From Escherichia coli (GTDB lineage Bacteria > Pseudomonadota > Gammaproteobacteria > Enterobacterales > Enterobacteriaceae): 64,000 bases of DNA. The stretch lies in the NCBI RefSeq assembly GCF_044324875.1, contig NZ_CP172185.1, one strand, 5' to 3'. Below, one piece after another: positions 24,208 to 62,481 of this stretch (position 1 is the first letter of the stretch; the number at the start of each line of letters is the position of its first letter). The notes below the pieces were generated by a model. That model ran no database searches, was not told where the DNA came from, and saw nothing but the letters and a program-made list of their open reading frames with translations. A program made the position numbers and the translations under genes.

Positions 24208-24660
24208 ATGACTAACCTGTTTGTTCGTAGCGGAATTTCTTTTGTCGATCGTAGCGAAGTTTTAACCCATATCGGTAATGAGATGCTCGCGAAAGGTGTG
24301 GTTCATGATACATGGCCACAGGCATTAATTGCCAGAGAAGCAGAATTCCCTACCGGGATAATGCTTGAGCAGCACGCCATTGCAATACCGCATTGTGAGG
24401 CGATTCATGCTAAGTCGTCAGCCATTTATCTGTTAAGGCCAACAAATAAAGTTCATTTTCAGCAAGCGGATGATGATAACGACGTGGCGGTATCGTTGGT
24501 TATTGCGTTAATTGTGGAAAATCCGCAGCAGCAATTGAAACTTTTACGCTGTTTATTTGGCAAGTTACAACAGCCCGAGATCGTCGAGACACTAATCACT
24601 CTTCCTGAAACCCAGTTAAAGGAATACTTCACAAAGTATGTTTTAGATTCAGACGAATAA
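24208..24660 (+). CDS. gatA: PTS galactitol-specific EIIA
   Basis: 150-aa ORF, operon position. Confidence 0.9.
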   Translation: MTNLFVRSGISFVDRSEVLTHIGNEMLAKGVVHDTWPQALIAREAEFPTGIMLEQHAIAIPHCEAIHAKSSAIYLLRPTNKVHFQQADDDNDVAVSLVIALIVENPQQQLKLLRCLFGKLQQPEIVETLITLPETQLKEYFTKYVLDSDE

Positions 24661-28298: not shown

Positions 28299-29078
28299 AT
28301 GACGATGAATTCATTCGAGCGAAGGAATAAGATCATCCAATTAGTGAATGAACAGGGAACCGTGCTTGTTCAGGATCTGGCGGGAGTATTTGCTGCCTCG
28401 GAAGCGACAATCCGTGCCGATTTGCGCTTTCTCGAACAAAAAGGCGTGGTTACGCGCTTTCATGGCGGTGCGGCGAAAATAATGTCCGGTAATAGTGAAA
28501 CCGAGACCCAGGAAGTTGGGTTTAAAGAGCGATTTCAGCTCGCCAGCGCGCCAAAAAACAGAATAGCGCAGGCGGCAGTCAAAATGATCCACGAAGGGAT
28601 GACCGTTATTCTCGACAGCGGAAGTACGACAATGCTTATCGCCGAAGGATTAATGACCGCCAAAAATATCACGGTGATTACCAACAGTCTCCCGGCAGCA
28701 TTTGCCCTTTCCGAAAATAAAGACATTACTCTGGTCGTCTGTGGTGGGACCGTCCGCCATAAAACACGCTCGATGCATGGTTCCATTGCCGAGCGTTCAT
28801 TGCAGGATATTAATGCCGATTTAATGTTTGTCGGTGCTGATGGTATTGATGCGGTTAATGGTATTACGACCTTTAATGAAGGTTATTCGATTAGCGGGGC
28901 GATGGTTATAGCCGCAAATAAAGTGATTGCCGTTCTCGATTCATCGAAATTTAATCGTCGCGGTTTTAATCAGGTACTGCCAATCGAAAAAATTGACATT
29001 ATTATTACCGATGATGCCGTGTCAGAGGTGGATAAACTGGCATTGCAGAAGACACGGGTGAAATTAATTACGGTGTAG
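28299..29078 (+). CDS. gatR: DeoR-family repressor of the gat operon, apparently intact
   Basis: 259-aa uninterrupted ORF with N-terminal DeoR HTH and C-terminal sugar-binding domain. Confidence 0.85.
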   Translation: MTMNSFERRNKIIQLVNEQGTVLVQDLAGVFAASEATIRADLRFLEQKGVVTRFHGGAAKIMSGNSETETQEVGFKERFQLASAPKNRIAQAAVKMIHEGMTVILDSGSTTMLIAEGLMTAKNITVITNSLPAAFALSENKDITLVVCGGTVRHKTRSMHGSIAERSLQDINADLMFVGADGIDAVNGITTFNEGYSISGAMVIAANKVIAVLDSSKFNRRGFNQVLPIEKIDIIITDDAVSEVDKLALQKTRVKLITV

Positions 29079-30059: not shown

Positions 30060-30473
30060 GATCGTATGTGCCTTTATGATTGGTCTGTAGATAGTGTAGA
30101 GCAGAAAAGAAAAGGTGGAGTCAGAACAGGATGAAAGTCGGAGGATAAAAAATCAGTTCAAGTATGGAGGATTCAGTGGTTACCACCAGGAGCTTGCAAT
30201 GGGGACAGTGAATGTTAACGGTAGCCACCGGTAAATTTCAAAAAAGAGCATATACCTAATATTCAACTAAACAGTGGCATCTTCACTATCTTATTCTAAA
30301 TATATTAAAGCCCTCATGGGGATACCTGGGCAGGGCTTCATGTTTGTAATTCCTACTTATGTAGGAAATGTTGTACAGAACATTTATTATAATCCTATTC
30401 AATTATAATAATCATGCCATTATTATATTTTAACACCAGAGCGTGTCGTTGGTATTTAATGGGGGAAGGTAAG

Positions 30474-30791
30474 ATGAAAAAGATAGCTGCTATATCATTA
30501 ATTAGTGTTTTTCTTATGTCTGGGTGTGCTGTACATAATGATGAGACAAGTATCGGTAAATTTGGTCTTGCATATAAAAGTAATATTCAGCGTAAACTCG
30601 ATAACCAATACTACACCGAAGCCGAAGCTTCTTTAGCCAGGGGCAGAATATCTGGTGCAGAAAATATAGTAAAAAATGATGCAGCTCATTTCTGTGTTAC
30701 TCAGGGCAAAAAAATGCAGATAGTTGACCTGAAGACAGAAGGTGCAGGATTACATGGCGTCGCTCGTCTGACATTCAAATGTGGAGAGTGA
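30474..30791 (+). CDS. yegR: Small lipoprotein YegR
   Basis: ORF 30414..30791; start taken at MKKIAAISLISVFLMSGC (lipobox LMSGC) with ggaagg RBS. Confidence 0.8.
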   Translation: MKKIAAISLISVFLMSGCAVHNDETSIGKFGLAYKSNIQRKLDNQYYTEAEASLARGRISGAENIVKNDAAHFCVTQGKKMQIVDLKTEGAGLHGVARLTFKCGE

Positions 30792-30961
30792 GAATATTTT
30801 TTGGTAAGCGTCAAACATGCGCGTTCTGGTTGTGCTTAGCCGGAACCTGTGCGAGCACGATGCCGTTACGTGAAAGGCATCGTGCTATGAAGGGAGATTC
30901 TATCGATGTGGTCAATGGAAGACGGTCACCTGGGATCAATCCGTCTCTATGGTTTATGCAC

Positions 30962-31048
30962 AAAAAATAAGCCCGTGTAAGGGAGATTACACAGGCTAAG
31001 GAGGTGGTTCCTGGTACAGCTAGCATTTTATGGGTTATGTTTTTCAGC
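30962..31048 (-). ncRNA. cyaR: CyaR (RyeE) Hfq-dependent sRNA
   Basis: Minus-strand sequence gctgaaaaacataacccataaaatgctagctgtaccaggaaccacctccttagcctgtgtaatctcccttacacgggcttatttttt matches CyaR as I remember it, including the terminator hairpin and U-tail. Confidence 0.9.
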
Positions 31049-31079
31049 GAAACAGATGATAACCTTAATAAATGCAGCT

Positions 31080-31101
31080 GTATGTGATCGGTTTCTAAGA
31101 A
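31080..31101 (-). promoter_or_regulatory. Probable CRP site of the cyaR promoter (centred near -41.5)
   Basis: tgtgatcggtttctaa (TGTGA half-site at 31083-31087) about 41 bp upstream of the CyaR 5' end; -10 tatcat 7 nt upstream of the start. Confidence 0.5.
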
Positions 31102-31132: not shown

Positions 31133-32494
31133 TCACTTACCGTGGGGGTTACGCGTGGTTTCCCCGGAGAAATTACGCATCAGCAGCGCGTAATTTAGCT
31201 CAAGATCCTGCGGCACCGGGATCCACACAGTATAACCATCGCCCGGTGCGACCGGCATTGCTTCGCCTTTGGCGTTTTCCATGTGCTCAAGGGTAAAGTT
31301 AATGTTCCCTTGCGGCGTCATCAGCTCAAGGCTGTCGCCAACGGAGAATTTATTTTTCACCGCTACCGCCGCGAGGTCGCCCTTGCGCTCACTGGTAAAC
31401 TCACCAACAAACTGCTGGCGGTCAGAAACTGAATAACCGTATTCGTAGTTCTGATAATCGTCGTGAGTATGACGACGCAGGAAACCTTCGGTATAGCCAC
31501 GATGCGCCAGACCTTCCAGGGTTTCCAGCAGGCTGGTATCGAATGGTTTTCCCGCAGCTGCGTCATCGATAGCTTTACGGTAAACCTGCGCGGTGCGTGC
31601 GCAATAGTAGAAAGATTTGGTACGGCCTTCGATTTTCAGCGAATGCACGCCCATTTTGGTCAGGCGTTCAACATGGGCGATGGCGCGCAGATCTTTCGAG
31701 TTCATGATGTAAGTGCCGTGCTCATCTTCAAACGCGGTCATATACTCGCCCGGACGCTGGGCTTCTTCGATCATAAACACTTTGTCGGTTGGTGCGCCGA
31801 TCCCCAGCGTCGGTTCAACGTTTTGCACCGGAATCGGTTCGTACTTGTGTACGATGTTGCCGACGTCATCTTCTTTCCCTTCCTGGACGTTATACTCCCA
31901 GCGGCAGGCGTTGGTGCAGGTGCCCTGGTTCGGGTCGCGCTTGTTGATATAGCCAGAGAGCAGGCAGCGACCGGAGTAGGCCATGCACAGCGCGCCGTGA
32001 ACGAAGATTTCGATCTCCATATCTGGCACCTGATTGCGGATCTCTTCAATCTCTTCCAGTGACAGTTCGCGAGAGAGGATCACGCGGGTCAGACCCATTT
32101 GCTGCCAGAATTTCACCGTCGCCCAGTTCACGGCGTTAGCCTGTACTGAGAGATGGATCGGCATTTCAGGGAAGTGCTCGCGCACCAGCATAATCAGCCC
32201 TGGATCAGACATAATCAGCGCATCCGGCCCCATTTCCACCACCGGTTTCAGGTCACGGATAAAGGTTTTCAGCTTGGCGTTGTGCGGTGCAATGTTGACC
32301 ACGACATAAAACTTTTTCCCCAGCGCGTGGGCTTCATTGATGCCGAGCTGAAGATTTTCGTGGTTAAATTCGTTGTTGCGCACACGCAGGGAGTAACGCG
32401 GCTGGCCCGCATAAACAGCATCTGCGCCATAAGCGAAAGCGTAACGCATATTTTTCAGCGTTCCCGCCGGGGAAAGGAGTTCCGGTTTAAACAT
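31133..32494 (-). CDS. yegQ: Peptidase U32-family protein
   Basis: 453-aa ORF MFKPELLSPAGTLKNMRYAFAYGADAVYAGQPRYSLR... Confidence 0.9.
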   Translation of the reverse strand: MFKPELLSPAGTLKNMRYAFAYGADAVYAGQPRYSLRVRNNEFNHENLQLGINEAHALGKKFYVVVNIAPHNAKLKTFIRDLKPVVEMGPDALIMSDPGLIMLVREHFPEMPIHLSVQANAVNWATVKFWQQMGLTRVILSRELSLEEIEEIRNQVPDMEIEIFVHGALCMAYSGRCLLSGYINKRDPNQGTCTNACRWEYNVQEGKEDDVGNIVHKYEPIPVQNVEPTLGIGAPTDKVFMIEEAQRPGEYMTAFEDEHGTYIMNSKDLRAIAHVERLTKMGVHSLKIEGRTKSFYYCARTAQVYRKAIDDAAAGKPFDTSLLETLEGLAHRGYTEGFLRRHTHDDYQNYEYGYSVSDRQQFVGEFTSERKGDLAAVAVKNKFSVGDSLELMTPQGNINFTLEHMENAKGEAMPVAPGDGYTVWIPVPQDLELNYALLMRNFSGETTRNPHGK

Positions 32495-58283: not shown

Positions 58284-60137
58284 ATGAGACGATTTCTGAC
58301 GACGCTGATGATACTCCTGGTCGTGCTGGTGGCCGGGTTATCTGCGTTAGTGTTGCTGGTGAATCCGAATGATTTCCGCGACTATATGGTCAAGCAAGTT
58401 GCTGCACGTAGCGGTTATCAATTGCAGCTCGACGGGCCACTGCGTTGGCACGTCTGGCCGCAACTTAGTATCCTCTCCGGGCGAATGTCTCTCACTGCCC
58501 AGGGCGCGAGCCAGCCACTGGTTCGCGCAGACAACATGCGTCTGGACGTGGCGCTTTTACCACTGCTGAGTCATCAACTGAGCGTTAAGCAGGTGATGCT
58601 AAAAGGGGCAGTGATTCAACTGACGCCGCAGACGGAAGCGGTGCGCAGTGAAGACGCTCCGGTTGCACCGCGCGACAATACCTTGCCGGATCTGTCAGAC
58701 GATCGCGGATGGTCGTTTGATATATCCAGTCTTAAGGTGGCGGACAGCGTGCTGGTGTTCCAGCATGAAGATGACGAGCAGGTGACAATCCGCAATATTC
58801 GCCTGCAAATGGAACAAGATCCCCAACATCGTGGTTCATTTGAGTTCTCCGGGCGGGTTAATCGCGATCAGCGCGATCTCACGATATCCCTTAACGGTAC
58901 GGTAGATGCTTCTGATTATCCGCATGATTTAACGGCGGCTATTGAACAAGTTAACTGGCAGTTGCAGGGTGCAGATTTACCAAAACAAGGTATTCAGGGG
59001 CAGGGGAGTTTCCAGGCCCAGTGGCAGGAGTCACATAAACGCCTTTCATTTAACCAAATTAGTTTGACCGCCAATGACAGTACGCTGAGCGGGCAAGCAC
59101 AGGTCACACTGACAGAGAAACCGGAATGGCAGCTGAGACTGCAATTTCCGCAACTGAATCTTGACAACCTCATCCCGCTTAATGAAACAGCGAACGGTGA
59201 AAACGGTGCCGCGCAGCAGGGGCAGAGCCAATCAACGTTGCCGCGCCCGGTCATTTCTTCGCGTATTGATGAACCGGCCTATCAGGGACTGCAAGGCTTT
59301 ACGGCTGATATTTTGTTGCAGGCCAGTAACGTGCGCTGGCGCGGAATGAATTTTACAGATGTTGCCACGCAAATGACCAACAAGTCGGGTTTGCTGGAAA
59401 TTACTCAACTGCAGGGCAAACTTAACGGTGGACAGGTTTCACTGCCGGGCACGCTGGACGCGACATCAATAAATCCGCGGATAAACTTCCAGCCACGGCT
59501 GGAAAACGTTGAGATTGGTACCATTCTGAAGGCGTTTAACTATCCGATTTCGTTGACCGGAAAGATGTCACTGGCTGGTGATTTCTCCGGTGCTGACATA
59601 GATGCCGACGCATTCCGCCATAACTGGCAAGGACAGGCACATGTCGAAATGACCGACACGCGCATGGAAGGGATGAACTTCCAGCAGATGATTCAGCAAG
59701 CGGTAGAACGTAATGGTGGTGATGTGAAGGCCGCTGAAAACTTCGATAACGTAACGCGTCTTGACCGCTTTACCACCGATTTGACGTTGAAGGATGGCGT
59801 CGTGACGTTAAACGACATGCAAGGTCAATCGCCCATGCTGGCGCTTTCCGGGGCTGGTACGTTGAATCTGGCGGAGCAAACCTGTGACACCCAGTTTGAT
59901 ATTCGGGTCGTGGGGGGCTGGAACGGGGAAAGCAAACTGATTGATTTCCTCAAAGAAACGCCAGTACCGCTGCGGGTTTATGGCAACTGGCAGCAACTCA
60001 ATTACAGTCTGCAAGTGGATCAGTTACTGCGCAAACATCTACAGGACGAAGCGAAACGTCGCCTGAATGACTGGGCCGAGCGGAATAAAGATTCCCGCAA
60101 TGGCAAAGATGTGAAGAAGTTGCTGGAGAAGATGTAG
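58284..60137 (+). CDS. asmA: Outer membrane assembly protein AsmA
   Basis: 617-aa ORF with N-terminal TM anchor; follows dcd. Confidence 0.9.
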   Translation: MRRFLTTLMILLVVLVAGLSALVLLVNPNDFRDYMVKQVAARSGYQLQLDGPLRWHVWPQLSILSGRMSLTAQGASQPLVRADNMRLDVALLPLLSHQLSVKQVMLKGAVIQLTPQTEAVRSEDAPVAPRDNTLPDLSDDRGWSFDISSLKVADSVLVFQHEDDEQVTIRNIRLQMEQDPQHRGSFEFSGRVNRDQRDLTISLNGTVDASDYPHDLTAAIEQVNWQLQGADLPKQGIQGQGSFQAQWQESHKRLSFNQISLTANDSTLSGQAQVTLTEKPEWQLRLQFPQLNLDNLIPLNETANGENGAAQQGQSQSTLPRPVISSRIDEPAYQGLQGFTADILLQASNVRWRGMNFTDVATQMTNKSGLLEITQLQGKLNGGQVSLPGTLDATSINPRINFQPRLENVEIGTILKAFNYPISLTGKMSLAGDFSGADIDADAFRHNWQGQAHVEMTDTRMEGMNFQQMIQQAVERNGGDVKAAENFDNVTRLDRFTTDLTLKDGVVTLNDMQGQSPMLALSGAGTLNLAEQTCDTQFDIRVVGGWNGESKLIDFLKETPVPLRVYGNWQQLNYSLQVDQLLRKHLQDEAKRRLNDWAERNKDSRNGKDVKKLLEKM

Positions 60138-60195: not shown

Positions 60196-60429
60196 TTCGT
60201 GGCGGCACCATTATATTCTGAATATGTAAGATCGAAGGCTGTTCCGTTCACTTGATGTTCCTCGCTACTATGGAACGCTCAAGCCGGTGAACGTGCCAGG
60301 GTGGCTCAATCTCCACCACCCTGGCAACCCGGACCCACACCCCCGCTGTGATGTCCGTTTACCACAGACAATGCTTCATTGCTGAAGTTATAAGGCGTTA
60401 CGCAGCATTGGGTAAAATGGCCGATACCA

Positions 60430-62013
60430 TCACACCTCGTACTCCATCTCGCTATCCTTACGCAGCGGTATAATCTGCACCTTCTGCACGCGATGGCTTT
60501 CCACCTGCAACGTTTTAAGCAAATAATCCCCCACCTGAACTTCTTCGCCAGGTTTTGGAATACGCTGCAAATATTCCATCAGCAGCCCGGCAATGGTGTG
60601 ATATTCGCGTTTCTCATCCAGCGGTAGCGGCACATATTGCACCAGATCTTCCAGTGGCATATGACCATTCGCCGTCCAGGAACCGTCGGCGTTTTTCTGA
60701 ATATCATGGCGGGCGTCGATCTCTTCCACTTCGTTCGGCAAGTTACCGGCAATAGTTTCCGTGACGTCACTTAATGTCACAATCCCTTCCACCGAGCCAA
60801 ACTCATCCACTACAAAAGCAAAGTGCGTGCGGGCATTACGGAACTGCTCCAGGGCAGGTAACAACGGCAAGGTTTCCGGGAACACCAGCGGCTGGCGAAT
60901 CAACACCCGCAGGTTGAGCGGTTCGCCGCGCAGAGACTGTTGTAGCAGGTCGATAACGTGAACAACACCGAGCAAATCTTCTGCGTCATCACCGTCGGTA
61001 ACCACCAACCGCGTATGCTGATTTCGCTCCAGCAACTGGCGGATTTCTTCTTCCGGCGCGTTGAGATCGATATGCTCAATATCGTGGCGCGACGTCATAA
61101 TGCTGCTGACGGTACGCTGGTTAAGATTAAGTACCCGCTCAATCATCCGCCGTTCCTGCGGATTAAAGATCTGCTGGTTACCATGATCCACCAGCATGGA
61201 CGCGGTTTCGGCGTCCAGTTCCGCATCTTCTTTTTGCCCGCTAAGCAGGCGCATTACCGCTTCGGTAGTCCGCTGGCGCAGCGTCTGGTTAGCGGAAAGA
61301 AAACGTCGCCGGTTAAAGATAGCCAACTGATTGAGCGCCTCGATCATCACCGAGAAACCAATAGCAGCGTACAGGTAGCCTTTCGGAATGACGAAGCCGA
61401 AACCTTCTGCCACCAGGCTAAAGCCAATCATCAACAGGAAGCTTAAGCAGAGAATAACGATCGTCGGGTGACTGTTAACAAATTGCGTTAACGGCTTGCT
61501 GGCCATCAACATCAGGCTAATAGCGATAACGACGGCGGCCATCATGACCAGTAAATGGTCGACCATCCCGACGGCGGTAATCACCGAGTCGAGTGAGAAG
61601 ATGGCGTCCAGTACCACAATTTGTGTCACCACCCCCCAGAACTTCGCACCTTTGCGTTGCGTGGGGTTATTGCTGTCTTTCCCTTCCAGCCGTTCGTTCA
61701 GCTCCATCGTGGCTTTGAACAGCAGGAAGAAACCACCAAACAGCATGATTAAGTCGCGGGCGCTAAAGGTAAACGAGCGAAAGCTGAATAGCGGTTGTGT
61801 CAGGGTGACCAGCCAGGAGATTGACGCCAGCAGTAACAGGCGCATTAACATCGCCAGCAGCAGCCCGGTAACCCGTGCGCGGTCGCGCTGCTTCGGCGGT
61901 AGTTTTTCGGCGAGGATGGCAATAAAGACCAGGTTATCAATGCCGAGGACCAGTTCGATCACAATCAGCGTGATTAACCCGGCCCAGATAGACGGATCGG
62001 CAATCCATTCCAT
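60430..62013 (-). CDS. yegH: Inner membrane protein YegH (TerC-like membrane domain, CBS pair, CorC/HlyC-type C-terminus)
   Basis: ORF 60430..62079; start taken at [34 protein letters not shown] (527 aa); domain assignment from memory. Confidence 0.8.
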
Positions 62014-62481
62014 AGTAAGTACAAAACCTATTCGTTGTATGACAAATGTCACAATTCGATCATGGATAAATCGGGGCAAAAATGCAATGTTGCAGCACTA
62101 TTTATCTCATATTATTTGAGGGTAATAACCTCACATTATCCCTGAATTAAAAGTGGTAATAATAAAATATTATTTAAGAAATATCGCATGTGGAGACGCA
62201 ATATTAAATATTGTCAACCTAAAGAAACTCCTAAAAACCATATTGAATGACACTTAATATAATTCTTAAAAATAGCCAATTGCCGAATTGTTACCTTGCC
62301 TGCTATTCCGTTAGCTGTAACACTTCCTCCTGCATTATTGGAGAGCCAATATTCAATTACCATAATGTCACCTTATATTCGGAAGTTAATTTCCGTAATA
62401 ACCCTTTCTCATCAACGACTGCATGCTGAGAGGGTGTGAAAAATTAAACTAAATCAGTGTATTGGTAGCTAAAAAGCCAGG

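Follow-up and report, generated by a model that had tools for sequence, protein, structure and literature searches.

The yegR–cyaR interval of an Escherichia coli chromosome as the probable flank of an empty P2 attachment site

The 170-bp interval that separates yegR from cyaR in the window (the whole 64-kb stretch of Escherichia coli DNA analysed here) is, very probably, the flank (the B arm) on the yegR side of an empty primary attachment site, the one used by phage P2 and its relatives; nothing was found that contradicts the identification of the adjoining core as attB. Along the plus strand, the order is yegS (minus strand), yegR, the 170-bp interval, cyaR (minus strand) and yegQ/trhP (minus strand), and the features that frame the site are the following.

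30474–30791, plus strand: yegR coding sequence, a 105-aa lipoprotein (open reading frame list; RefSeq yegR at the matching coordinates in strain YDC107)
30962–30988, no strand assigned: 27-bp P2 att core (attB, locI), AAAAAATAAGCCCGTGTAAGGGAGATT, identical in 27 of 27 positions to the annotated P2 attP core
30965–31050, minus strand: cyaR sRNA gene (Rfam RF00112, 100.7 bits against a gathering score of 47)
31133–32494, minus strand: yegQ/trhP, the flanking gene on the cyaR side (open reading frame list; RefSeq of YDC107 and MG1655)

The yegR stop codon, as read directly from the sequence, occupies 30789–30791, and the longer open reading frame that starts at 30414 is a mechanical extension of yegR. 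Measured strictly, the gap between yegR and cyaR is 173 nt; it is 170 nt to the A-run that opens the att core, and the spacing of 170 bp given in the initial annotation is correct when counted in this way. The same annotation reported that no prophage-remnant genes lie between yegR and cyaR, which agrees with tblastn searches that found no similarity to Ogr or D across the whole 64-kb window. The stretch 30474–31132 matches strain YDC107 at 100% identity, and of the 5,426 complete E. coli genomes, 5,423 match it at 90–99%. Beside yegS, a regulator of the DeoR/GlpR family is encoded by an intact open reading frame at 28299–29078, the counterpart of which is annotated as incomplete in the K-12-like strain that was inspected; we take this gene to be gatR in K-12 nomenclature.

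The P2 attachment core at the 3' end of cyaR

The core corresponds to positions 24356–24382 of P2 (AF063097), abuts the right end of the 170-bp interval and, within the cyaR terminator (matched by the terminator scan at 30997–30970 plus the T-run), takes in the loop, the 3' arm and the U-tail. In genomes with an occupied site, BLAST breaks the yegR-to-yegQ query into two parts, 1–515 and 489–659, and the 27 nt by which these parts overlap are 30962–30988. In one occupied genome (L003), the core is followed directly by the phage integrase gene, the repressor gene and cox. The attL junctions, seen in 77 prophage contigs of IMG/VR, run from yegR through the hairpin considered below, the B arm and the core into phage DNA, and the attR junctions run from the ogr terminator through the phage P arm and the core into cyaR. 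On the level of sequence, 30962–30988, at the 3' end of cyaR, is thus shown to be the place where a P2-type integrase would exchange strands. Because the phage core is identical to attB, integration should rebuild the cyaR terminator at attR, so that the phage would bring along a replacement 3' end for the CyaR sRNA, as at sites of the tRNA type. The proposal of the initial annotation that an unoccupied attachment site lies here is right as far as the locus goes, given the breakpoints and the attP identity at 30962–30988, and wrong in tying the site to the hairpin: the core sits 76 nt rightward, within the cyaR terminator.

Some further variety was seen around this core. At least two kinds of P2-like phage use it, with different crossover limits (IMG/VR loci; L177): in the P2-type kind, phage DNA begins after ...GGGAGATT, and in the second kind, it begins after ...GTGTAAGGG and continues with CGTTT.... 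P2-like prophages were also seen beside cyaR variants that are typical of other genera. A 48-kb viral contig, IMGVR_UViG_2565956724_000008 (L066/L067), carries the flank consisting of yegR, the hairpin and attL at both ends in inverted orientation, and has the appearance of a palindromic assembly error, not of a biological arrangement.

When the yegR-to-yegQ stretch was used as the query against 5,426 complete E. coli genomes, the two flanks formed one short contiguous stretch in 4,562, among which the K-12-specific junction (truncated core plus D fragment) accounts for 358, or 6.6% of all genomes; subtraction leaves about 4,200 genomes (77%) that are empty like the window. The flanks lie far apart in about 860 genomes (16%), and a P2-like prophage was present in every such case inspected. 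Thus, the absence of ogrK and yegZ is the majority state in E. coli and not a peculiarity of this strain.

The contrast with K-12 had been drawn correctly in the initial annotation: in MG1655, the cryptic prophage PR-X, comprising ogrK and the yegZ pseudogene, is annotated between cyaR and yegR (NC_000913.3, 2167183–2167811). The further step, that the short interval of the window could be a scar left by the loss of the K-12 remnant, is not supported. The alignment with K-12 that the annotation had proposed as a check finds essentially the same spacer there: MG1655 retains the yegR-side spacer as 158 nt plus a truncated core, with 86% identity to the window and with the hairpin at 2167894–2167926, and the remnant sits between the spacer and cyaR. 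Starting from the spacer, the K-12 order is truncated core (AAAAAAATAAGCCCGTGTA), D fragment, ogrK, P2 P arm, full core and cyaR. A K-12-like strain likewise retains the spacer and the hairpin.

The yegR-side flank and its resemblance to the P2 P arm

The similarity between the window and P2 extends beyond the core, into the right third of the interval and possibly somewhat further.

30903–30961, plus strand: B arm, with homology to the P2 attP P arm (blastn, shuffle test, P2 annotation)
30891–30900, plus strand: 10-mer AAGGGAGATT, the same as the right end of the core (30979–30988), by sequence

In a blastn search of 2.3 Gb, window positions 30903–30988 aligned with P2 24293–24382 at 78% identity (E 2e-6), and the matching P2 stretch is the annotated P-arm site for Int, the IHF site and the core. 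With the core excluded, the B arm still resembles the P arm with z = 10.5, a score reached by 0 of 2000 shuffles. The conservation is uneven. Approximately 30903–30930 matches the annotated Int arm site, and its first 15 nt, TCGATGTGGTCAATG, which cover the first Int repeat, are identical (15/15); the second Int repeat is degenerate, with 3 of 8 positions changed (GGAAGACG versus TGTGGACG), so that what is found is not a functional P arm with two direct Int repeats, only the first of the two being intact. Positions of about 30934–30961 align loosely, at about 55–60% identity, with the P2 IHF-site region, a part that is 16 nt shorter in most E. coli. The stretch TGTGGTCA also lies inside this yegR-side arm. 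Among hosts, the arm occurs in indel forms of 45, 33 and 32 nt, with 33 nt in most genomes, and the long, 45-nt allele of the window is present in 144 of the 5,426. A divergent Escherichia lineage (L009) has a P-arm-like flank too, with the IHF part better preserved (z = 10.1). In turn, many P2-like phages, found beside the cyaR variants of several genera, have a uniform P arm.

More likely than not, this homology is a worn phage end left by an ancient integration of a P2-like phage, and the empty site accordingly looks like a worn attR. Two points weigh against such a relic: the direction of transfer, from phage to host, is inferred, and only the first Int repeat is preserved. The reverse origin, whereby an ancestral P2-like phage captured host DNA beside cyaR through aberrant excision, with the host sequence being the original one, would account for the B arm/P arm homology as such and invokes an established route by which phages acquire flanking host sequence. 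Nevertheless, it appears unlikely: the best conserved block (15/15 nt) is precisely the annotated Int arm-binding repeat of the phage, the phage version is the same in many P2-like phages from different host genera and retains both repeats, and the host version carries indels and decays differently in E. coli and in L009, as a non-functional relic would.

In one locus (L146) and two IMG/VR contigs, the host arm allele ends in TTACGCGT beside the core, instead of TTATGCAT, and these are the same 8 nt as in the P arm of the K-12-type P2 remnants, which suggests occasional exchange of arms between phage and host outside, that is, to the left of, the 27-bp core.

In the common short arm allele (L093, L096, L174), GGGCTTAT...ATAAGCCC forms a perfect 8-bp inverted repeat that bridges the arm and the core and, in cyaR read-through RNA, would be expected to compete with the 3' arm of the terminator; the long allele of the window has only an imperfect version (30944–30974, GGTTTAT/ATAAGCC).

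The 10-mer at 30891–30900 is possibly a vestige of a second copy of the core. With gaps allowed, 19 of the last 20 nt of the core align to 30873–30900, a score that 20 of 3000 dinucleotide shuffles reach; in the K-12 allele, the alignment of the core with the spacer is not significant.

Gene remnant, chance frames and hairpin in the remaining spacer

A different kind of loss is apparent at the left end of the interval.

30796–30797, no strand assigned: junction of a 170-bp deletion (genomes of the AVS0223 type are 170 bp longer at this point)

In Cedecea-like and other enterobacterial contigs, a second lipoprotein gene, of 106 aa, starts 3 nt after yegR and shows a weak, sub-threshold match to DUF4156; it is intact in L012 (2822–3142) and L013 (about 999–1330). 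The segment that follows yegR in E. coli AVS0223 (L002, 1320–1490) matches this gene of L012 and L013 (tblastn E 7e-7 and 0.002) and was found in 948 of 5,426 E. coli genomes; L009 has a still longer remnant. The deleted 170 bp, judging from these matches, are the decayed N-terminal two-thirds of the second lipoprotein gene. Because the window lacks the segment, 30796/30797 is a true deletion junction, of a host pseudogene rather than of a prophage. For the left part of the window spacer itself, tblastn gave no signal of a coding remnant, and the link is drawn through the AVS0223-type remnant only.

The two short overlapping open reading frames noted in the initial annotation as having no recognisable similarity do exist, at 30779–30970 on the plus strand (63 aa) and at 31026–30811 on the minus strand (71 aa). 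It is hardly conceivable that one of them encodes a small protein, although the frames are open and one phage-style submission annotates a hypothetical protein across the region. Their lengths and C-termini vary by allele (63/49/69 and 71/67/35 aa) because of 16-bp and 1-bp indels, neither has a Pfam match, RefSeq annotates nothing here in any genome inspected, and the minus-strand frame begins within cyaR. Both are chance frames.

There remains the inverted repeat, which, together with a weaker neighbor, makes up the predicted secondary structure of the spacer.

30823–30846, plus strand: weaker predicted stem-loop in the 3' flank of yegR (minimum-free-energy and centroid fold, prediction only)
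30854–30886, no strand assigned: inverted repeat, perfect over 11 bp, around an 11-nt loop; single copy, host-borne, without a U-tract

The arms, AGCACGATGCC (30854–30864) and GGCATCGTGCT (30876–30886), match perfectly, just as first described. The repeat lies 62 nt past the yegR stop, in the zone where yegR and cyaR converge. Seven of the 11 pairs are G-C, and the stem alone is predicted to fold with -20.8 kcal/mol as plus-strand RNA and -19.3 kcal/mol as minus-strand RNA, the whole 170-nt interval folding moderately better than its shuffles (z -2.2 and -2.4). The expected number of perfect 11-bp inverted repeats with arms at most 40 nt apart is about 0.6 per 64 kb and about 0.0015 per 170 bp; the window contains two. 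The other one (60294–60304 / 60316–60326) likewise combines an 11-nt loop with the lack of a T-run. It is flanked by the convergent open reading frames 58284–60137 (plus strand) and 60430–62079 (minus strand), and has in common with the yegR hairpin the geometry and not the sequence.

The hairpin is present in 5,409 of the 5,426 E. coli genomes. It is not an interspersed repeat of the REP/BIME or ERIC kind: across 5,414 genomes, it occupies one place per genome (median 1, maximum 2). Among YegR loci outside the complete E. coli set (six loci from a scan of genome contigs), the hairpin is absent from L009, the divergent Escherichia lineage with a 93% identical YegR, where both sides of it can be aligned. 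Nor does it seem to derive from sequence that adjoined the lost lipoprotein gene on its 3' side: the alignments with L009 (z 0.5), L011 (z 2.1), L012 (z 0.0) and L013 (z -0.7) all lacked significance. One strain, E. coli 1912D004 (L178), lacks yegR and the left part of the spacer; there, an IS3-family element borders directly on the hairpin and has removed the first two bases of the left arm.

Could the hairpin nonetheless be a part of phage recombination, either as an att element or as the scar of a removed remnant or prophage? The layout lends this some appeal, in that the hairpin is near the att core, AAGGGAGATT repeats the right end of the core just past it, and the phage P arms all have a hairpin (the ogr terminator) a few nucleotides before TCGATGTGGTCAATG. 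Against this, K-12 and the prophage-bearing genomes carry the hairpin unchanged beside attL or the truncated core, in phage genomes it occurs only within records that include host flank, and the similarity of core and spacer lacks significance for the K-12 allele. Specifically, among 50,697 phage records searched with the spacer by blastn, only vB_EcoM-720R8 and 'phage TP' contain it, both including host flank, and the exact hairpin pattern is found in 79 IMG/VR contigs, always on the host side of attL. The notion of a recombination element or scar is, therefore, largely refuted already, and we consider it very improbable. Because K-12 keeps the same spacer and hairpin with the remnant inserted at the core, the hairpin is neither an att element nor the scar of remnant loss.

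A role of the hairpin as canonical intrinsic (Rho-independent) terminator of yegR, the possibility that the initial annotation had set against its own proposal, is also quite improbable. The stem is stable and contains G-C pairs, and its conservation across E. coli, 62 nt downstream of the stop, conforms to that expectation. However, neither ATGAAGGGAGATT, which follows the stem on the plus strand, nor CGCACAGGTT, its minus-strand counterpart, provides a U-tract, the 11-nt loop exceeds the usual 3–8 nt of intrinsic terminators, and the terminator scan calls the cyaR terminator only. A search of 30700–31100 against Rfam, at gathering and at permissive thresholds (E <= 5), found CyaR only and no family for the hairpin.

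Variation within the species was assessed on 20 haplotypes from 186 sequences, among which substitution events are distributed as follows.

Stem: 8 events, 22 positions
Loop: 4 events, 11 positions
Flanks: 10 events, 25 positions

No compensatory pairs or covariation were seen among the 20 haplotypes. Single changes in the stem keep a G.U pair on the plus strand in 3 cases and on the minus strand in 3, and break pairing on both in 2; the two commoner stem variants (C-to-T) preserve G.U pairing in yegR-sense RNA. Variation within the species gives no evidence of constraint on the hairpin.

These data come close to giving even chances to a hairpin without any function. It would then be a neutral by-product, such as a quasi-palindrome made perfect through template switching or what is left of the stem of a former terminator, and its apparent conservation would reflect no more than the low divergence among E. 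coli genomes. The equal mutation of stem, loop and flanks, without covariation, is what this predicts, and the absence from L009, where both sides align, and the lack of a U-tract and of an Rfam family are also in its favor. Less easily accommodated are the improbability of a perfect 11-bp stem in 170 bp (~0.0015), the retention of plus-strand pairing as G.U by those stem variants that occur at appreciable frequency, and the position of the hairpin as the first strong stem past a stop codon in a convergent region, which is typical of 3' end stem-loops.

A somewhat less probable view, which we put forward tentatively as the favored idea of what the hairpin might do, is that the hairpin is a host feature unrelated to recombination that, if active at all, acts in RNA. 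Located 62 nt past the yegR stop, with no strong stem-loop before it, it would, following factor-dependent termination, block 3'-to-5' exonucleases, and this block would define and stabilise the 3' end of yegR; the same stem could also form in read-through transcripts of cyaR. In K-12, a region of Rho termination peaks inside the spacer, at 2167873 (+) (Adams et al. 2021, PMC7815308, supplementary file 2); it is classed there as 'orphan', with a Rho score of 3.19 and p 1.2e-6, from DirectRNA-seq with and without bicyclomycin (PMC7815308). MG1655 2167873 (+) corresponds to about 30907 on the minus strand of the window, that is, in the sense of cyaR and about 21 nt before the hairpin, at the coarse resolution of an 800-nt window. 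The CyaR terminator allowed 41% read-through in a reporter assay (PMC9765468). That the other 11-bp repeat of the window likewise sits between convergent open reading frames was counted for a role in RNA. In the one Term-seq dataset searched, no 3' end is listed for yegR, a gene induced when EvgA/EvgS is activated.

Meaning and relation to known systems

As a locus, this is already well known: it is an ordinary empty P2 attB at the 3' end of cyaR. What is new, and minor, is the P-arm homology of 30903–30961 and the deletion of the 170-bp lipoprotein-gene remnant at 30796/30797; outside the core, the 170 bp amount to old non-coding debris, of which both are part. The main effect of the result is to remove a false lead, K-12 being part of a 6.6% minority and the hairpin being unrelated to the phage site. 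Annotators could label 30962–30988 as attB for P2-like phages and disregard both open reading frames. The arm-like host flank could serve to test, in a simple way, whether sequence beyond the 27-bp core adds to the site preference of P2, and the locus as a whole is a tidy example of layered decay, with a lost lipoprotein gene and an old phage end beside an sRNA gene.

A more far-reaching, speculative scenario, which we regard as doubtful, would tie all these elements together: the 'empty' site of essentially all E. coli would be the scar of an ancient P2-like prophage, an attR-like unit composed of the Int repeat, the IHF-like region and the core, perhaps with a vestige of the second core at 30873–30900, kept phage-like through arm exchange, with an arm repeat that possibly binds the P2 integrase and with the hairpin as a selected RNA 3' end element. 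If so, the retained arm repeat could help to make the cyaR site the preferred one for P2.

The closest known system is the classical locI, which we take to be this same empty P2 site beside cyaR, and which was reportedly described in E. coli C by Barreiro and Haggard-Ljungquist in 1992 as the preferred P2 site. In both, the 27-bp core is the same as the attP core and sits where cyaR ends, with yegR on one side and yegQ/trhP on the other; nothing essential sets the window apart, except for its rarer allele of the yegR-side arm, which is 12–16 nt longer. With PR-X of K-12, the window has in common the locus, the yegR-side spacer, the hairpin and the core adjoining cyaR, whereas K-12 has about 0.63 kb of P2 DNA between the truncated and the full core and the window has none.

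The P arm of P2 attP (AF063097: Int 24293–24320, IHF 24324–24357) aligns with 30903–30961 over the full length of that segment, at the same distance from the core and in the same orientation, with the first arm repeat identical; unlike the phage, the window has a degenerate second Int repeat, a loosely matching IHF region and no T-run terminator directly upstream.

Stem-loops at 3' ends are known to stabilise mRNAs after Rho-dependent termination, the ends being trimmed back to the stem (PMC7815308). The hairpin resembles these in being a strong stem without a U-tract soon after a stop codon, with a Rho region mapped nearby in K-12, but differs in that the Rho signal in K-12 comes from the other strand, that of cyaR, at coarse resolution, and that the Term-seq data searched list no yegR 3' end at the stem.

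Finally, integration of phages and islands at the 3' ends of sRNA genes is exemplified by the sdsR locus in Salmonella (PMC3333887). As at the tRNA, tmRNA and sRNA genes that host such insertions, the core at cyaR overlaps the half of the sRNA gene that holds the terminator, and the phage copy restores that half on integration; there is no difference in principle, and the cyaR site appears as a standard example of this class.
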